Shown: positions 8,132 through 31,508 of the stretch, in pieces | Layout: each line of letters begins with the position of its first letter | Numbering within the stretch: position 1 is the stretch's first letter | DNA from: Bacilli bacterium | Lineage (GTDB): Bacteria > Bacillota_I > Bacilli_A > RF39 > UBA660 | Length of the DNA stretch: 42,468 bases | Assembly (NCBI GenBank): GCA_017397745.1 | Contig: JAFQIC010000049.1 | Location: 1 to 42,468, forward strand | Reading direction: 5' to 3' | Program-made: the position numbers and the translations under genes | The notes under the pieces: model-generated | The model's input: the letters and a program-made list of their open reading frames with translations, nothing else | What the model was told of the DNA's origin: nothing | Databases searched by the model: none

Positions 8132-8159
8132 TAACTAGATTTCTCTAGTTAATTTTTTT
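8132..8159. terminator. Bidirectional hairpin between the convergent PBP and noc genes
   Basis: Arms TAACTAGA (8132-8139) and TCTAGTTA (8144-8151) with a 4-nt loop, and T-runs on both strands. The right arm overlaps the noc stop codon at 8149-8151. Confidence 0.55.
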
Positions 8160-9330
8160 GTATTTTTATTACAATTTGATACATATCTTCAAAATCAAAT
8201 TCTTCAGAATTTACTTTAAATCCTTTAGAAGCTATTGTATCTTTTAATCCTCTAGCAGCACCTATTGCGTCTGCTAAAGTGCTTATACTATTAGATGTTA
8301 CGGCTTCTTCTTTTACTTGTTGTTGTCTAAATTCTTCTATTATTGAATTTGATGGTACGCTTAATGGGTTAATAGGTTCGCTTGCACCACTTTGATTTAA
8401 ATTTTCTACTTCTGGTGTTTTAAATTCTTCTATTGGATTTACTTTTTGAATATCAGATAACTTACTATCAAAATCTAAAATTTCTGGTATATCACTATCT
8501 AAACTTTTTGCTGGTTCTATAGTAGGCATTATAATTTCTTCTTTAGGTTCATTATAAGATGGTGAAGGAGTAAAAGTACTTTGAGGAATATCTGATTGTT
8601 TTTTCATTAAATCTTCAAAAGATACTGTTTTAGGTTTTTCAAATAAATCTTCTGTCTCATTTTTAATTTTATCAACATCTATATTATATATATCTTCTTT
8701 ACTTGTTACTTCTTTAACGGGTAAGTCTTTACCTAATAATTTATTTATTGCATCATCTGTTTGTTTAACAGTTAATCTTTGTTCTATTATTCTTCTTAAA
8801 AGACCTATTTGTGCTGTTTTATCAGTTAATTGTAATAAACTTCTTGCATGTCTTTCAGATATTTTATTTGTCAGTAATGCTTCTTGTACTTCTTCATCTA
8901 ATGCTAAAAGTCTAATTTTATTTGCAATTGTTGGCTGTGCTATTCCTAATTTTGTTGCAAGCTCTTCTTGTGTCATTCCTTTATCAAGAAGTTTTTTATA
9001 AGATTGTGCTTCTTCAATCGCAGTTAAATCTTTCCTTTGAATATTTTCTACAACTGCAATTTCTGCACTTTTATTATCATCAACATTCATTATAACAGCG
9101 GGAACTTGTCTTAATCCAGCCATAGTTGATGCTTTATATCTTCTTTCACCAGCAATTATTTCATACTTATCACCAATTTGTCTTAAAACAAGTGGTTGTA
9201 TTACTCCATGCTGCTTTATAGAATCTGATAATTCTTTTAATTCATTTTCATTAAAAGCTAGTCTTGGTTGAAACCTATTTGGAATTATATCATCTATATT
9301 TATTAATTTTACACCTTTTTCTAAATCCAT
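8149..9330 (-). CDS. noc: Noc-like ParB-family nucleoid occlusion protein with a long internal insertion
   Basis: ParB N-terminal box IIPNRFQPR and CTP-binding box IIAGERRYKAS. The HTH LGIAQPTIANKIRLL and ISERHARSL resemble B. subtilis Noc (GQSTIANKLRLL, ITERHARAL) rather than Spo0J. The C-terminus KVNSEEFDFEDMYQIVIKIQK resembles the Noc C-terminus KLNTEEEEFEEYIQLTIRIPK. Sits next to rsmG as in Bacillus. ATG 9330 follows AGGTGG. The GTG at 9345 is preceded directly by an in-frame TAG. Confidence 0.85.
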   Translation of the reverse strand: MDLEKGVKLINIDDIIPNRFQPRLAFNENELKELSDSIKQHGVIQPLVLRQIGDKYEIIAGERRYKASTMAGLRQVPAVIMNVDDNKSAEIAVVENIQRKDLTAIEEAQSYKKLLDKGMTQEELATKLGIAQPTIANKIRLLALDEEVQEALLTNKISERHARSLLQLTDKTAQIGLLRRIIEQRLTVKQTDDAINKLLGKDLPVKEVTSKEDIYNIDVDKIKNETEDLFEKPKTVSFEDLMKKQSDIPQSTFTPSPSYNEPKEEIIMPTIEPAKSLDSDIPEILDFDSKLSDIQKVNPIEEFKTPEVENLNQSGASEPINPLSVPSNSIIEEFRQQQVKEEAVTSNSISTLADAIGAARGLKDTIASKGFKVNSEEFDFEDMYQIVIKIQKN

Positions 9331-9432
9331 TTTTATCACATCCACCTATATATTCTTATTTATAATTTTAAAATATTTTTATTTATATTTCAAGTAATTT
9401 TAATTAAAATACTTAATATTATTATTTTTTTG

Positions 9433-13423: not shown

Positions 13424-13439
13424 TATTTCCCGGGAAATA
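13424..13439. promoter_or_regulatory. Noc-binding site (NBS), perfect 16-bp palindrome TATTTCCCGGGAAATA
   Basis: Exact match to the B. subtilis NBS consensus as I recall it. Embedded in a 26-bp perfect palindrome at 13419-13444 that overlaps the jag stop codon, in the jag-mnmE gap. Confidence 0.7.
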
Positions 13440-15807: not shown

Positions 15808-15828
15808 CGTAAATCAGAGGTGAGGGTT

Positions 15829-17202
15829 ATGGATGTTATTAAAATTTGGAATGACTTTTTAGATATTTTATCAACAAGAATATCATCTATTTCTTTTAGT
15901 ACTTGGTTTAAAGAAAGTACTTTGCACTCACTTAAAGATGGTATTGCTAAAATTACAGTACCTTATGAACCTTCAAAAATACATATTACTGAAAATTATT
16001 ACGATTTAGTAGAAGAAATACTATTATATATAACTGGAAAACAGTATGAAATAGAAGTTTATTTACCTTCTGAAGTAACTTCTGAGGATAATTCTGTTGA
16101 AGAAATTACTAATAAAATTTCTGAAAATACAATAGAAGATTACAAATATTATAGTAATTTTAATCAAAAATATCGTTTTGATAACTTTGTAGTTGGAGAC
16201 TCTAATCGTTTTGCATATTCAAGTGCACTCGCGGTAGCTGAAAGACCAGGTAAACTTTATAATCCTTTATTTATCTATGGAAAAAGTGGGCTTGGTAAAA
16301 CGCATTTAATGCATGCGATTGGTAACTTCTTATTAGAAAACTCTGATAAAAAGGTTTTATATATTACAAGTGAACAATTTATAAATGATTTTATAAATAT
16401 AAATAAAAAAGAAGATAAATCTAAAGATAATGTAAGTTATATTGATGTATTTAAAAGAAAATATAGAGATGTTGATGTACTTATGATTGATGATATTCAA
16501 TTTTTAGGACCAGCAACTAAATCTCAACAAGAATTTACTAATACTTTTAATACACTTTATGATAATGAAAAACAAATTATTATATGTAGTGATAGAAGTG
16601 TGGATGACTTAAAATTATTAGAAGATAGACTTAAAACTAGATTCAATTGGGGACTAAAAGTTGATATTAATCCACCTAACTTTGATTTAAAAGTTCAAAT
16701 TATAAAAAATAAAATTGAAGTTGGAGATCTTGCGATTGATTTAAGTGATGACATAATTAATTTTATTGCTAGTAACTGTGGAAATGATGTTAGAAATTTA
16801 GAAGGTGCAATTACTAGACTAGTTGCTTATTCCGCAATTATGAATATAAAAAGTTTAACAATAAATGATGCGATGGATGCATTGTCGGATTATACAAATA
16901 ATTTAATATACTCACAAAATACTATAACTAAAATTCAAAATATAGTTGCTAACTATTTCAAATTACATCCTGATGATTTAAAGAGTAAAAAAAGAAGCAA
17001 ACCTATTGCAAATGCTAGGCAAATTGCTATGTATCTATGTCGAACTATGACAGAAGAAACACAACAAAGAATAGGTTTAGAATTTGGAGGTAGAGATCAT
17101 TCCACAGTTATTCATTCTTATGAAAAAGTTAATAATGATATAATTAATAACAAAGAACTTGACAAAATAATAACAGAACTCAAACAACTAATATGTGAAT
17201 AG
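15829..17202 (+). CDS. dnaA: Chromosomal replication initiator protein DnaA
   Basis: AAA+ Walker A GKSGLGKTHL, box VII and sensor motifs, and C-terminal DnaA-box-binding domain (IANARQIAMYLCR...DHSTVIHS). ATG 15829 follows GAGGTGAGG. The track start GTG 15820 lies inside that Shine-Dalgarno. Confidence 0.97.
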   Translation: MDVIKIWNDFLDILSTRISSISFSTWFKESTLHSLKDGIAKITVPYEPSKIHITENYYDLVEEILLYITGKQYEIEVYLPSEVTSEDNSVEEITNKISENTIEDYKYYSNFNQKYRFDNFVVGDSNRFAYSSALAVAERPGKLYNPLFIYGKSGLGKTHLMHAIGNFLLENSDKKVLYITSEQFINDFININKKEDKSKDNVSYIDVFKRKYRDVDVLMIDDIQFLGPATKSQQEFTNTFNTLYDNEKQIIICSDRSVDDLKLLEDRLKTRFNWGLKVDINPPNFDLKVQIIKNKIEVGDLAIDLSDDIINFIASNCGNDVRNLEGAITRLVAYSAIMNIKSLTINDAMDALSDYTNNLIYSQNTITKIQNIVANYFKLHPDDLKSKKRSKPIANARQIAMYLCRTMTEETQQRIGLEFGGRDHSTVIHSYEKVNNDIINNKELDKIITELKQLICE

Positions 17203-24542: not shown

Positions 24543-24566
24543 ATGTTCCGTGTGGAACATTTTTTA
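24541..24566 (+). terminator. gyrA intrinsic terminator hairpin that also resembles parS
   Basis: AAATGTTCC-GTGT-GGAACATTT followed by TTTT, starting at the gyrA stop codon. The core TGTTCCGTGTGGAACA (24544-24559) matches parS TGTTNCACGTGAAACA at 13 of 16 positions. Confidence 0.65.
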
Positions 24567-24598: not shown

Positions 24599-24614
24599 TA
24601 TTTCCCGGGAAATA
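24599..24614. promoter_or_regulatory. Noc-binding site, perfect TATTTCCCGGGAAATA
   Basis: Exact 16-mer within a 28-bp perfect palindrome at 24593-24620, 39 bp downstream of the parS-like hairpin. Confidence 0.7.
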
Positions 24615-24942: not shown

Positions 24943-24958
24943 TGTTTCCCGTGGAACA
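24943..24958. promoter_or_regulatory. parS-like / hybrid parS-NBS site TGTTTCCCGTGGAACA
   Basis: Matches parS TGTTTCACGTGAAACA at 14 of 16 positions. The left half TGTTTCCC combines the parS G at position 2 with the NBS C at position 7. It is not downstream of any gene, so a terminator role is unlikely. Confidence 0.4.
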
Positions 24959-24961
24959 AAT

Positions 24962-24977
24962 TATTTCCCGGGAAATA
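24962..24977. promoter_or_regulatory. Noc-binding site, perfect TATTTCCCGGGAAATA
   Basis: Exact 16-mer within the perfect palindrome 24958-24981, 3 bp from the parS-like site. Confidence 0.7.
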
Positions 24978-25029: not shown

Positions 25030-25101
25030 GCACAACACATGATTGTAGAACCAGGTCAGAATCGGAAGATAGCAGCCTTAATACAACTTATGTGTGTGTG
25101 C
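25030..25101 (+). ncRNA. ffs: Small (4.5S-type) signal recognition particle RNA
   Basis: ACCAGGTCAGAATCGGAAGATAGCAGCC matches SRP domain IV of E. coli 4.5S RNA (ACCAGGUCAGGUCCGGAAGGAAGCAGCC), with a GGAA tetraloop and compensatory stem changes. The flanks GCACAACACAT and ATGTGTGTGTGC pair, and a T-run follows. Ends are approximate. Confidence 0.8.
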
Positions 25102-29940: not shown

Positions 29941-30673
29941 TTTAGTTGGTTTTAAAAATATAAAAATTGTACAATGTAGAGATTATTTTAATTTTAGTTT
30001 GGATTCAGTATTGCTTCCAAATTTTTGTGTTTTAAATAAAAATGTAAAAAAAATACTTGATATTGGATGTGGAAATTGCCCAGTTAGTATTATTTTATCA
30101 TTAAAATGTGATGCTGAAATAACTGCGGTTGAACTTCAAAAAGAAATATATGATCTTGCTGAAGAGACACTTAGAATAAATCGACTAGAAAAAAGAATAA
30201 ATTTAATAAATGAAGATATAAAAGATTATTCAAAAAAAATAGATACAGATAGCTATGATTTAATAGTATCAAATCCACCATATTTTAAAATATATGAAAA
30301 GACATTAAAAAATGAAAATATTGTTAAATCAATTGCGCGTCATGAGATAACTCTTACTTTAGAAGATATAATTATTATAAGCAAAAAACTTTTAAAAAAT
30401 AATGCTTCTTTAGTTTTAGTACATAGAACTGATAGATTAGCTGAAATAATTAATCTTATGAAAAAAAACAATATAGAACCAAAGAGAATAAGATTTGTTT
30501 ATCCAAAAGAAAACACTCATTCAAATATGGTTTTAATTGAAGGCAAAAAGAACGCTAAAGAAGGCCTTAAAGTATTGCCACCATTAATAACGCATAATAA
30601 CGATGGGTCATATACAGAAGAAGTAAAAAAATGTTTTCATGAAAGAGGTACAAATGATACAAAAAAGTTATGA
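29921..30673 (+). CDS. tRNA1(Val) adenine-N6 methyltransferase-like protein (YabB/TrmN6 family)
   Basis: SAM motif ILDIGCGNCPVS and catalytic NPPYF. The start is uncertain. The track ATG 29867 overlaps ricT by 74 nt. GTG 29921 gives an N-terminus of typical length for the family. Confidence 0.8.
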   Translation: MKTVINDLVGFKNIKIVQCRDYFNFSLDSVLLPNFCVLNKNVKKILDIGCGNCPVSIILSLKCDAEITAVELQKEIYDLAEETLRINRLEKRINLINEDIKDYSKKIDTDSYDLIVSNPPYFKIYEKTLKNENIVKSIARHEITLTLEDIIIISKKLLKNNASLVLVHRTDRLAEIINLMKKNNIEPKRIRFVYPKENTHSNMVLIEGKKNAKEGLKVLPPLITHNNDGSYTEEVKKCFHERGTNDTKKL

Positions 30674-31508
30674 AAAAAGTAAATATGGAAATTTATATAT
30701 AGTTCCAACACCTATAGGAAATCTTGATGATATAACTATTCGTGCTTTAAATACACTTAAAGAAGTAGATTATATTTTATCTGAAGACACACGTGTAACA
30801 TTGGTTTTATTAAATAAATACGAAATAAAAAAGAAACTTTGTACTTGCCATAAATTTAATGAAGCAAAAATAAAAGATAAGGTATTAAATGATTTAAAAA
30901 ATGGGCTAAATATTGCTCTTGTTACTGATAGAGGCACTCCTTTAATTAGTGATCCTGGTTCAGTTATTGTTAAAAGTTGTATTGATAATGAAATAAATGT
31001 TATAGCTCTTCCTGGTCCAAGTGCGTTATTGCCGGCTTTAAATGTATCTGGTTTAGATACAGAAAAATTCTTGTTTTATGGATTTTTAAGCAACAAAGAA
31101 ACTGAAAGAAAAAAAGAACTTGAGATGTTAAAAGAAGTAAAATTTACAATAGTTTTATACGAATCACCTCATAGACTTCCTAAAACTTTACAAAATATGC
31201 GTAAAATTTTAGGAAATAGGCAAATAATTATTTCCCGGGAAATAACTAAGAGGTATGAAGAGGTATTTAGAGGTACAATTGAAGAAGCAATAGAAGTATA
31301 TAAAAATATTCTTGGTGAAATAGTAATAGTAGTAGAAAAAAATAATGAAAAAGATATAATAAATGAAGAAAATCTAATTAAGGAAGTTGATAATTTAGTT
31401 AAAAGTGGTTTGAGAAAAAAAGAGGCAATAAAAATAGTAGCTGAAAAATTTAACTTTTCTAAAAATTTATTATATAATATGTACGAAATGCATGAAAGGA
31501 AAAATTAA
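30654..31508 (+). CDS. rsmI: 16S rRNA (cytidine1402-2'-O)-methyltransferase
   Basis: Contains GNLYIVPTPIGNLDDIT, EDTR, SDPG and ISREITK motifs. ATG 30654 is preferred over 30639. Confidence 0.93.
   Translation: MIQKSYEKSKYGNLYIVPTPIGNLDDITIRALNTLKEVDYILSEDTRVTLVLLNKYEIKKKLCTCHKFNEAKIKDKVLNDLKNGLNIALVTDRGTPLISDPGSVIVKSCIDNEINVIALPGPSALLPALNVSGLDTEKFLFYGFLSNKETERKKELEMLKEVKFTIVLYESPHRLPKTLQNMRKILGNRQIIISREITKRYEEVFRGTIEEAIEVYKNILGEIVIVVEKNNEKDIINEENLIKEVDNLVKSGLRKKEAIKIVAEKFNFSKNLLYNMYEMHERKN
31229..31244. promoter_or_regulatory. Noc-binding site, perfect TATTTCCCGGGAAATA, inside the rsmI coding sequence
   Basis: Formed by the codons ATT ATT TCC CGG GAA ATA (I I S R E I). TCC and CGG are unusual choices in a gene set that mostly uses AGA for Arg. 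Confidence 0.65.

Follow-up and report, generated by a model that had tools for sequence, protein, structure and literature searches.

Noc is the textbook nucleoid-occlusion factor of Gram-positive bacteria, and its mechanism rests on an N-terminal membrane helix gated by cytidine triphosphate (CTP) together with binding sites spread along the chromosome arms. What, then, can a Noc-type protein do when that helix is gone? The question is raised by a gene in the stretch of DNA analyzed here (the window: 42,468 nucleotides, positions 1 to 42,468 of contig JAFQIC010000049.1, assembly GCA_017397745.1), which comes from a Bacilli bacterium of the GTDB lineage RF39, UBA660. The gene, referred to here as noc-type, encodes a protein of 393 amino acids (aa) of the ParB/Noc family that begins without a membrane helix and carries a long acidic linker between its DNA-binding and C-terminal domains. 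The assembly to which it belongs comprises 0.95 Mb in 89 contigs, is 88% complete, and has a GC content of 25%. As set out below, the protein belongs to the Noc lineage and has the cognate sites of Noc in its genome; on balance, it is probably an origin-proximal CTP clamp acting through its linker, and not a chromosome-wide, membrane-tethering occlusion factor.

The gene is a Noc-lineage paralogue of ParB and is distinct from the partition ParB of the same genome. When the tree is rooted on Spo0J, the Noc-type proteins, the window protein among them, all group together in a single clade (SH-aLRT 100), within which the long-form Nocs, those with the long linker, are again one clade (SH-aLRT 96). 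The top NCBIfam match is TIGR04285 (nucleoid_noc) at 277.6 bits, below the curated cut-off of 315; the insertion sets the C-terminal domain apart, so that the match is confined to profile positions 2-213 of 255. Over its last 54 residues, the protein can be aligned in full with canonical Noc C-termini (26-40% identity), and the elements of the domain follow one another as in canonical Noc (helix, G-hydrophobic turn, acidic stretch, final strand). The closest structures in the PDB are Geobacillus Noc (7NG0/7NFU, E 1e-57) and B. subtilis Noc (7OL9). More generally, the window protein has in common with Noc (YyaA) of B. subtilis and Noc of Geobacillus thermoleovorans (TIGR04285; 7OL9, 7NFU, 7NG0, 6Y93) the ParB_N CTPase domain with its GERRxR and ENLQR motifs, an NBS-type helix-turn-helix (HTH; NBS, Noc-binding site), genomic sites with the identical 16-bp NBS consensus, a C-terminal domain of one helix and two strands, and a gene position directly after rsmG; identity is ~50-57% across residues 7-200.

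The residues expected to bind CTP and to read DNA are in place. GERRYK (residues 61-66) and ENIQRKDL (95-102) are invariant across 91 relatives, and the CTP-site motifs are intact (G61, E62, R63 and R64 together with E95, N96, Q98 and R99, all invariant in the 91 sequences). Altogether, 56 columns of this alignment are invariant, CTP-site and DNA-reading residues among them. The specificity residues of B. subtilis Noc are Q158, K164, K169, and R186 (PMC7383237). The four corresponding positions (ParB 173/179/184/201) are Q132, K138, A143, and R160 in the window protein, so that three of the four match Noc: Q132, K138, and R160 correspond to Q158, K164, and R186 and are invariant in the 91 relatives, whereas the third position is alanine in the window protein and lysine in Noc. 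A lysine at either one of two permissive positions suffices for NBS specificity (PMC7383237). Thus, the impression of the sequence-only reading that the HTH and C-terminal domain look Noc-like is confirmed by the clade, the C-terminal alignment, and the specificity residues, three of which are of the NBS type, with A143 the one that differs.

The partition protein itself is encoded elsewhere. Contig C6 carries a second ParB gene, with soj before it and a DUF951-like open reading frame (ORF) after it; the product of this ParB gene, Spo0J, begins with the N-terminal peptide MDKRKALGRGLEQLF and has a parS-type HTH (GKSRSYVTNM...SLGHAK). The window protein and Spo0J/ParB have in common a small number of sites clustered near oriC and a CTP-clamp architecture, and in relatives the sites of the two, NBS and parS, are interleaved. 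However, the specificity residues are Q/K/R in the window protein, whereas Spo0J has R (173) and G (201); the ParA-stimulating peptide is absent from the window protein, in which ParB_N starts at residue 7, compared with residue 37 in its own Spo0J; and the two proteins fall in separate clades.

If the protein is a Noc by descent, the absence of its membrane helix must be real and not a matter of annotation. The ORF (8149..9345, minus strand) would encode 398 aa if a GTG start were used; the ATG at 9330 is the likelier start, with AGGTGGA ~9 nt upstream, and gives 393 aa, of which 15 (MDLEKGVKLINIDDI) precede the IPNRFQPR box. A TAG (9348-9346) immediately before the GTG closes the frame, and the 100-nt spacer between rsmG and the noc-type gene contains stops in all three frames, which excludes hidden N-terminal coding sequence. 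The identical protein, together with the identical start and 110 nt upstream of it, is present in six independent ENA metagenome assemblies. For comparison of the N-terminus and the linker, 80 species-level loci were fetched from public assemblies. All 80 have a short N-terminus, with an in-frame stop 16-52 codons before PNRFQPR and a start typically 16 codons upstream of it. An assembly error or a hidden upstream exon was therefore rejected, given the stops in every frame of the spacer, the six identical assemblies, and the closed frame in 80 species. On these points the sequence-only reading was accurate: it had noted the TAG closing the frame just upstream of the first start, some 10-15 residues before IPNRFQPR, a length of about 393 aa, and the loss of the N-terminal membrane helix.

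Membrane binding by Noc occurs through helix alpha1 (residues 1-10), while alpha2, which is conserved among Noc homologues, helps to keep alpha1 autoinhibited; the engineered variant N-delta-26 removes both (PMC8429893). In the window protein both helices are missing in front of ParB_N. Its N-terminus begins where N-delta-26 begins, and the alignments with the PDB structures start at Noc chain residues 28-33 opposite query residues 7-10; in effect, it is a natural counterpart of that variant. Unlike the engineered N-delta variants, the truncation here is natural, lineage-wide, and combined with a new linker. N-delta-10 Noc still forms a CTP-dependent clamp (PMC8429893). Since there is no membrane helix, CTP-gated direct membrane binding of the B. 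subtilis Noc type would be unable to operate.

Nor was a replacement anchor found elsewhere in the protein. A HeliQuest-type scan for a lipid-binding helix in the insertion gave no segment with a discriminant above 0.68 and none that was positive, and every amphipathic stretch of the linker has a net charge that is zero or negative. A Kyte-Doolittle scan gave no transmembrane-like stretch in the window protein or in any of the 80 orthologues, and AlphaFold2 models the C-terminus as a beta strand. With both scans empty and the C-terminus a strand, a membrane segment elsewhere in the protein was rejected. The helix is also missing from some short Nocs: among 25 Nocs of canonical length from sister families, 7 start without M-x-[ILMF]F, as do those of G034 and G037, and therefore the N-terminal membrane helix is less widespread than published work would suggest. 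Eight canonical-length Nocs from other families of the same class (L139, L146, L147, L148, L149, L150, L088, and L092, from genomes G362, G305, G379, G317, G291, G329, G034, and G037) start 57-60 residues before GERR without a hydrophobic M-x-[ILMF]F start, and the majority exceed the TIGR04285 cut-off.

The second departure from Noc is the linker. In canonical Nocs of sister families, the linker has a median length of 27 aa and a charge of +4, and typically reads ..KPKGK..SK..; in the window protein it is 150 aa, acidic, and disordered, with 32 D+E, 14 P, and 23 S+T. Long-form linkers from the 80 species are 77-307 aa in length and always acidic, with charges from -5 to -72. An AlphaFold2 model built from the 91-sequence alignment is confident at residues 1-200 and 352-393, with a predicted local distance difference test (pLDDT) score of 41-67 over residues 201-350, where three short helices are seen (219-225, 238-241, and 329-337). 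The window protein and its relatives are 70-86% identical across the N-terminal and DNA-binding domains and 49-70% identical in the C-terminal domain, compared with 17-39% in the linker.

Within this rapidly evolving sequence, several short blocks are conserved (Table 1). Block A, the most widely conserved of them, is kept across the whole clade, while block B is kept in the subclade of the window protein. F287 of block C does not vary among the 17 sequences of alignment A1, and a further short block, D, reads NPIEEF. The counterpart of block E, the helix before the C-terminal domain, is DPMDSV.KL in other subclades, with pLDDT 72-74 in the L053 orthologue. The sequence-only reading had put the net insertion at about 130 aa, with boundaries that prove correct to within ~10 residues, and had proposed amphipathic-helix and disorder prediction, by which the insertion is disordered and without a helix of the lipid type. 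It had also allowed that the insertion might turn out to be a common, dispensable linker. Common it is, throughout the lineage; featureless it is not, given the conserved short motifs.

The third departure concerns the DNA sites. Exactly four copies of the 16-bp NBS consensus TATTTCCCGGGAAATA (consensus from PMC7383237) are present in the assembly, compared with ~2e-4 expected by chance (estimated from base composition), and the NBS is the sole repeated GC-containing 16-bp palindrome in the genome. Near-matches to the 14- or 16-bp NBS, differing at 1-2 positions, were not found in this 88%-complete assembly. All four copies lie within 18 kb around dnaA (15820-17202), at -2.4 kb and then at +7.4 to +14 kb. 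The noc-type gene comes after jag-mnmE-mnmG-rsmG, a position that it shares with noc, and the opposite side is occupied by dnaA-dnaN-recF-gyrB-gyrA. The NBS of B. subtilis and S. aureus, on the contrary, occur genome-wide except near ter, a layout regarded as crucial (PMC7383237). Thus, the chromosome-wide layout typical of Noc is absent from this genome, which has four origin-region sites. Taken together, the protein agrees with Noc in DNA specificity, cognate sites, phylogeny, and locus, and lacks two of its defining features, the N-terminal helix and the chromosome-wide sites.

Two of the sites are accompanied by parS-like sequences. Ahead of the two NBS in the gyrA-ffs spacer, at distances of 40 bp and 3 bp, respectively, are parS-like 16-mers (TGTTCCGTGTGGAACA and TGTTTCCCGTGGAACA) that each differ from the consensus at 2 positions. 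Nothing closer to parS turned up in the rest of the assembly, and the two are no more than putative sites of its own Spo0J. Among 24 genomes of the same family, 21 have 1-5 perfect, clustered NBS; 17 of these have one or more NBS on the contig that carries noc, at a distance of 0.3-25 kb from it. A parS-like site lies within 80 bp of 17 of 36 NBS, regular alternating arrays with perfect parS included. Three details of the window's own sites may be added: the NBS at 31229-31244 sits in coding sequence and not in a spacer; the first parS-like 16-mer (24544-24559) also resembles the stem of the gyrA terminator; and a putative small RNA of the 4.5S signal recognition particle type (25030-25101, GGTCAGAATCGGAAGATAGCAGCC) lies just downstream of the second gyrA-side NBS. 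A KorB-like transcription factor was rejected as an identity for the protein, its sites being, in the settings listed in Table 1, not operator-like.

Table 1. Features of the noc-type gene, its product, and the NBS sites (positions in the window)
Feature	Position	Strand	Remarks
noc-type gene, 393-aa ParB/Noc-family protein	8149..9330	(-)	coding 9330..8152, stop codon 8149-8151
rsmG-noc spacer	9331..9432	(-)	ribosome-binding site AGGTGGA ~9341-9347; in-frame TAG 9346-9348
ParB_N (CTP-binding) domain, residues 7-98	9037..9312	(-)	Pfam E 7.6e-33
HTH_ParB DNA-binding domain, residues 100-198	8737..9033	(-)	Pfam
Acidic disordered linker, residues 201-350	8281..8730	(-)	net charge -16
Linker block A, residues 211-231 (KEDIYNIDVDKIKNETEDLFE)	8638..8700	(-)	I..IK....DI, short helix 219-225
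Linker block B, residues 235-245 (TVSFEDLMKKQ)	8596..8628	(-)	core SFEDLMKK
Linker block C, residues 279-289 (SDIPEILDFDS)	8464..8496	(-)	core PEILDFD
Linker block E, pre-C-terminal-domain helix, residues 326-338 (PSNSIIEEFRQQQ)	8317..8355	(-)	NSIIEEFRQQ
Noc-type C-terminal (dimerisation) domain, residues 351-393	8152..8280	(-)	one helix + two strands
Perfect NBS	13424..13439	.	between jag and mnmE
Perfect NBS	24599..24614	.	downstream of gyrA; parS-like 16-mer at 24544-24559
Perfect NBS	24962..24977	.	before ffs; parS-like 16-mer 24943-24958 ends 3 bp ahead
Perfect NBS	31229..31244	.	inside TP_methylase (RsmI-type) ORF 30639-31508

Sites gathered around dnaA invite the explanation that the protein mainly regulates replication initiation or origin firing through clamps flanking oriC. 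A link between Noc and the control of initiation is said to have been reported, by Pang et al. in 2017, for Staphylococcus aureus Noc; here the NBS bracket dnaA, and their origin-proximal clustering is conserved in relatives. However, none of them lies within the intergenic regions that flank dnaA, and the frequent interleaving with parS in relatives points to the partition complex and not to DnaA boxes. We regard a role mainly in initiation as improbable; in addition, it overlaps the role proposed below instead of excluding it.

How might an origin-proximal clamp without an anchor work? ParB-type clamps hold DNA between their DNA-binding and C-terminal domains. In the mechanism that we favor, the protein would load at the four NBS as a CTP-dependent sliding clamp, and the clamps would form an origin-proximal nucleoprotein array beside the Spo0J-parS complex and probably intermingled with it. 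The output would come through the linker, in either of two ways. Its short motifs could recruit one or more partner proteins; alternatively, its length and charge could alter the clamp itself, giving a larger lumen between the DNA-binding and C-terminal domains in which the basic, DNA-contacting linker of Noc is gone. By analogy with models of ParB clamps, a linker five to ten times longer would give a far larger lumen. In this manner the protein would mark or organize the origin region. A functional analogue of such a role is RicO of Staphylococcus aureus, a site-specific binder with origin-proximal sites that organizes origins (bioRxiv 10.64898/2026.03.06.710092). RicO is an unrelated protein, and it has a C-terminal amphipathic membrane helix, whereas the window protein has none.

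A reason to ask whether membrane contact persists in the family comes from a motif in the linkers of its orthologues. N[KR]FFNFLE[DN]E..NM occurs within the linker of 45 of 80 orthologues, sometimes with a second, NKFFTP copy, and its core, [LFIM]F[DN][FIL][LFS], is found in 32 of the 80 linkers, compared with a mean of 0.67 in shuffles. A similar pattern is seen at the N-termini of canonical Nocs from sister families (MGLFDFLGTK, MFNIFLRDD, MASLFNILS, MNIFS..), which are of the M-x-[ILMF]F kind, and the likeness suggests that the KFF motif may be the N-terminal anchor moved into the linker. The protein might still serve nucleoid occlusion, with DNA brought to the membrane indirectly by one or more linker motifs that bind lipid or a membrane-associated partner (e.g., a DivIVA/GpsB-type or divisome protein). 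The conservation of the other linker motifs would agree with this, as would the division genes of the host. A search of the 88%-complete assembly gave no MinD above the cut-off, and a cell of this kind would profit from another cue to the division site; the assembly does contain two genes with a DivIVA domain (C78:503-871 and C32:12301-12507).

However, the KFFNFLEDE motif is absent from the window protein and from its 20-member subclade (SH-aLRT 97). In the neighboring subclade, the aromatic half of the motif has become KKIS, while the LEDE..AN..M half is kept, a pattern more in keeping with binding to protein than with binding to lipid. In an AlphaFold2 model of a KFF-bearing orthologue, the motif region has pLDDT 46-52 with no helix or other secondary structure, and the model gave no support for docking of the motif onto the N-terminal domain in the manner of canonical alpha1. 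The charge of the window protein's linker and of its amphipathic stretches, and the presence of only four NBS, all at oriC, likewise speak against occlusion by an indirect route, which we consider unlikely. An orphan ParA/MinD-like ATPase on contig C86 was also tried as a partner and dropped, as it is part of a Tad-pilus-type operon. This Tad/Flp-pilus-like operon (C86 888-8829), in a genome of ~1 Mb, comprises a TadZ-like ATPase of the ParA/MinD family, a CpaF-like ATPase, two TadB/C-like membrane proteins, pilin-like genes, and an 803-aa repeat-rich surface protein; Pfam was used for the ATPase alone, and its neighbors were read by sequence inspection.

Several points weigh against the favored interpretation of an origin-proximal clamp acting through its linker. 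We infer, from the data above, what is said of membrane, CTP, and DNA binding and of localization, and the partner of the linker is hypothetical. With the KFF motif in 45 of 80 orthologues, membrane contact might persist in the family or come via a partner. An origin-only set of NBS could be an extreme form of the B. subtilis layout and could still bias division away from origins. More NBS could also sit in unassembled sequence (88% complete, 89 contigs), and positions outside contig C40 cannot be placed relative to ter. The sequence-only reading had offered two outcomes, either a membrane or partner contact within the insertion or a protein that is not an occlusion factor. The evidence leans to the latter, because there is no positive lipid-binding segment and no transmembrane stretch, and there are only four NBS, all at oriC.

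The anchor-less, long-linker architecture is lineage-wide in the RF39-type family of gut Bacilli. Of the 249 genomes sampled from the window's family, 232 have a Noc-type gene, in open frames of 323-793 aa. Relatives with this architecture include uncultured Bacilli, Tenericutes or Mycoplasma metagenome-assembled genomes, Clostridium sp. CAG:628, and Candidatus Coprovivens, the last of which is assigned to GTDB order RF39 (PMC8035907). A literature search found no paper on Noc homologues of this architecture, nor on nucleoid occlusion in RF39.

Some members of the family have lost the gene. In genus g74, all five genomes checked (G083, G103, G151, G195, and G208; 95-96% complete) carry a single ParB gene and lack NBS, as does G024; in both cases the long-form Noc has been lost and Spo0J kept. 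From the joint absence of the Noc gene and the NBS, it follows that the gene is linked to the site. These genomes bear on the idea that the protein is a decaying, functionless relic of Noc, its insertion a neutral, low-complexity expansion. The loss in g74 would be in keeping with decay, as would the fast evolution of the linker relative to the N-terminal and DNA-binding domains and its wide range of lengths. However, the intact frame in nearly all family genomes, the 56 invariant columns, the short motifs conserved within the linker, and sites that are perfect, conserved, and lost together with the gene are hard to reconcile with it, and we give a relic almost no credence.

Related families show other forms of the gene. 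In G025, which belongs to the same order and another family, the Noc-like protein L091 is 247 aa and has a C-terminal domain of the long-form type (GFKVTKNELDLDDKYTVTINIKK) and no insertion; its HTH is degenerate (no Q/K/R), as is its ENLQR box, and its branch is very long. No NBS was found in the G025 genome. The Noc-type genes of family f24 (G332:C11:115091-115861, G355:C12:2775-3536, and G308:C41:18936-19697) are full-length TIGR04285 matches in frames of 372-681 aa, with extensions outside the Noc core and not a linker insertion.

A wider proposal, which we put forward tentatively, is that the long-linker, anchor-less Nocs of RF39-type Bacilli may form a class of CTP clamp with a function of its own, loaded alongside ParB where NBS and parS alternate beside oriC. 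Their acidic, motif-bearing linker would dock a partner, whether for origin anchoring, for insulating the spreading of ParB, or for control of the partition complex. KFFNFLEDE would be a relocated anchor in most of the family that has been lost in the window subclade, which would be the most stripped-down form.

A whole family of abundant, uncultured gut Bacilli with genomes of ~1 Mb departs from the textbook picture of Noc. The family keeps the clamp and the exact DNA site; it has dropped the helix, inverted the charge of the linker, lengthened the linker up to ten-fold, and restricted the sites to the origin, where they often alternate with parS, and the Noc scaffold appears to have been put to another use. 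The g74 genomes and G024 are natural knock-outs that can be mined for co-lost partner genes. The family as a whole offers natural variants with which to address the role of the ParB/Noc linker, the sharing of one loading zone by two CTP clamps, and the placement of the division site in Firmicutes with reduced genomes.

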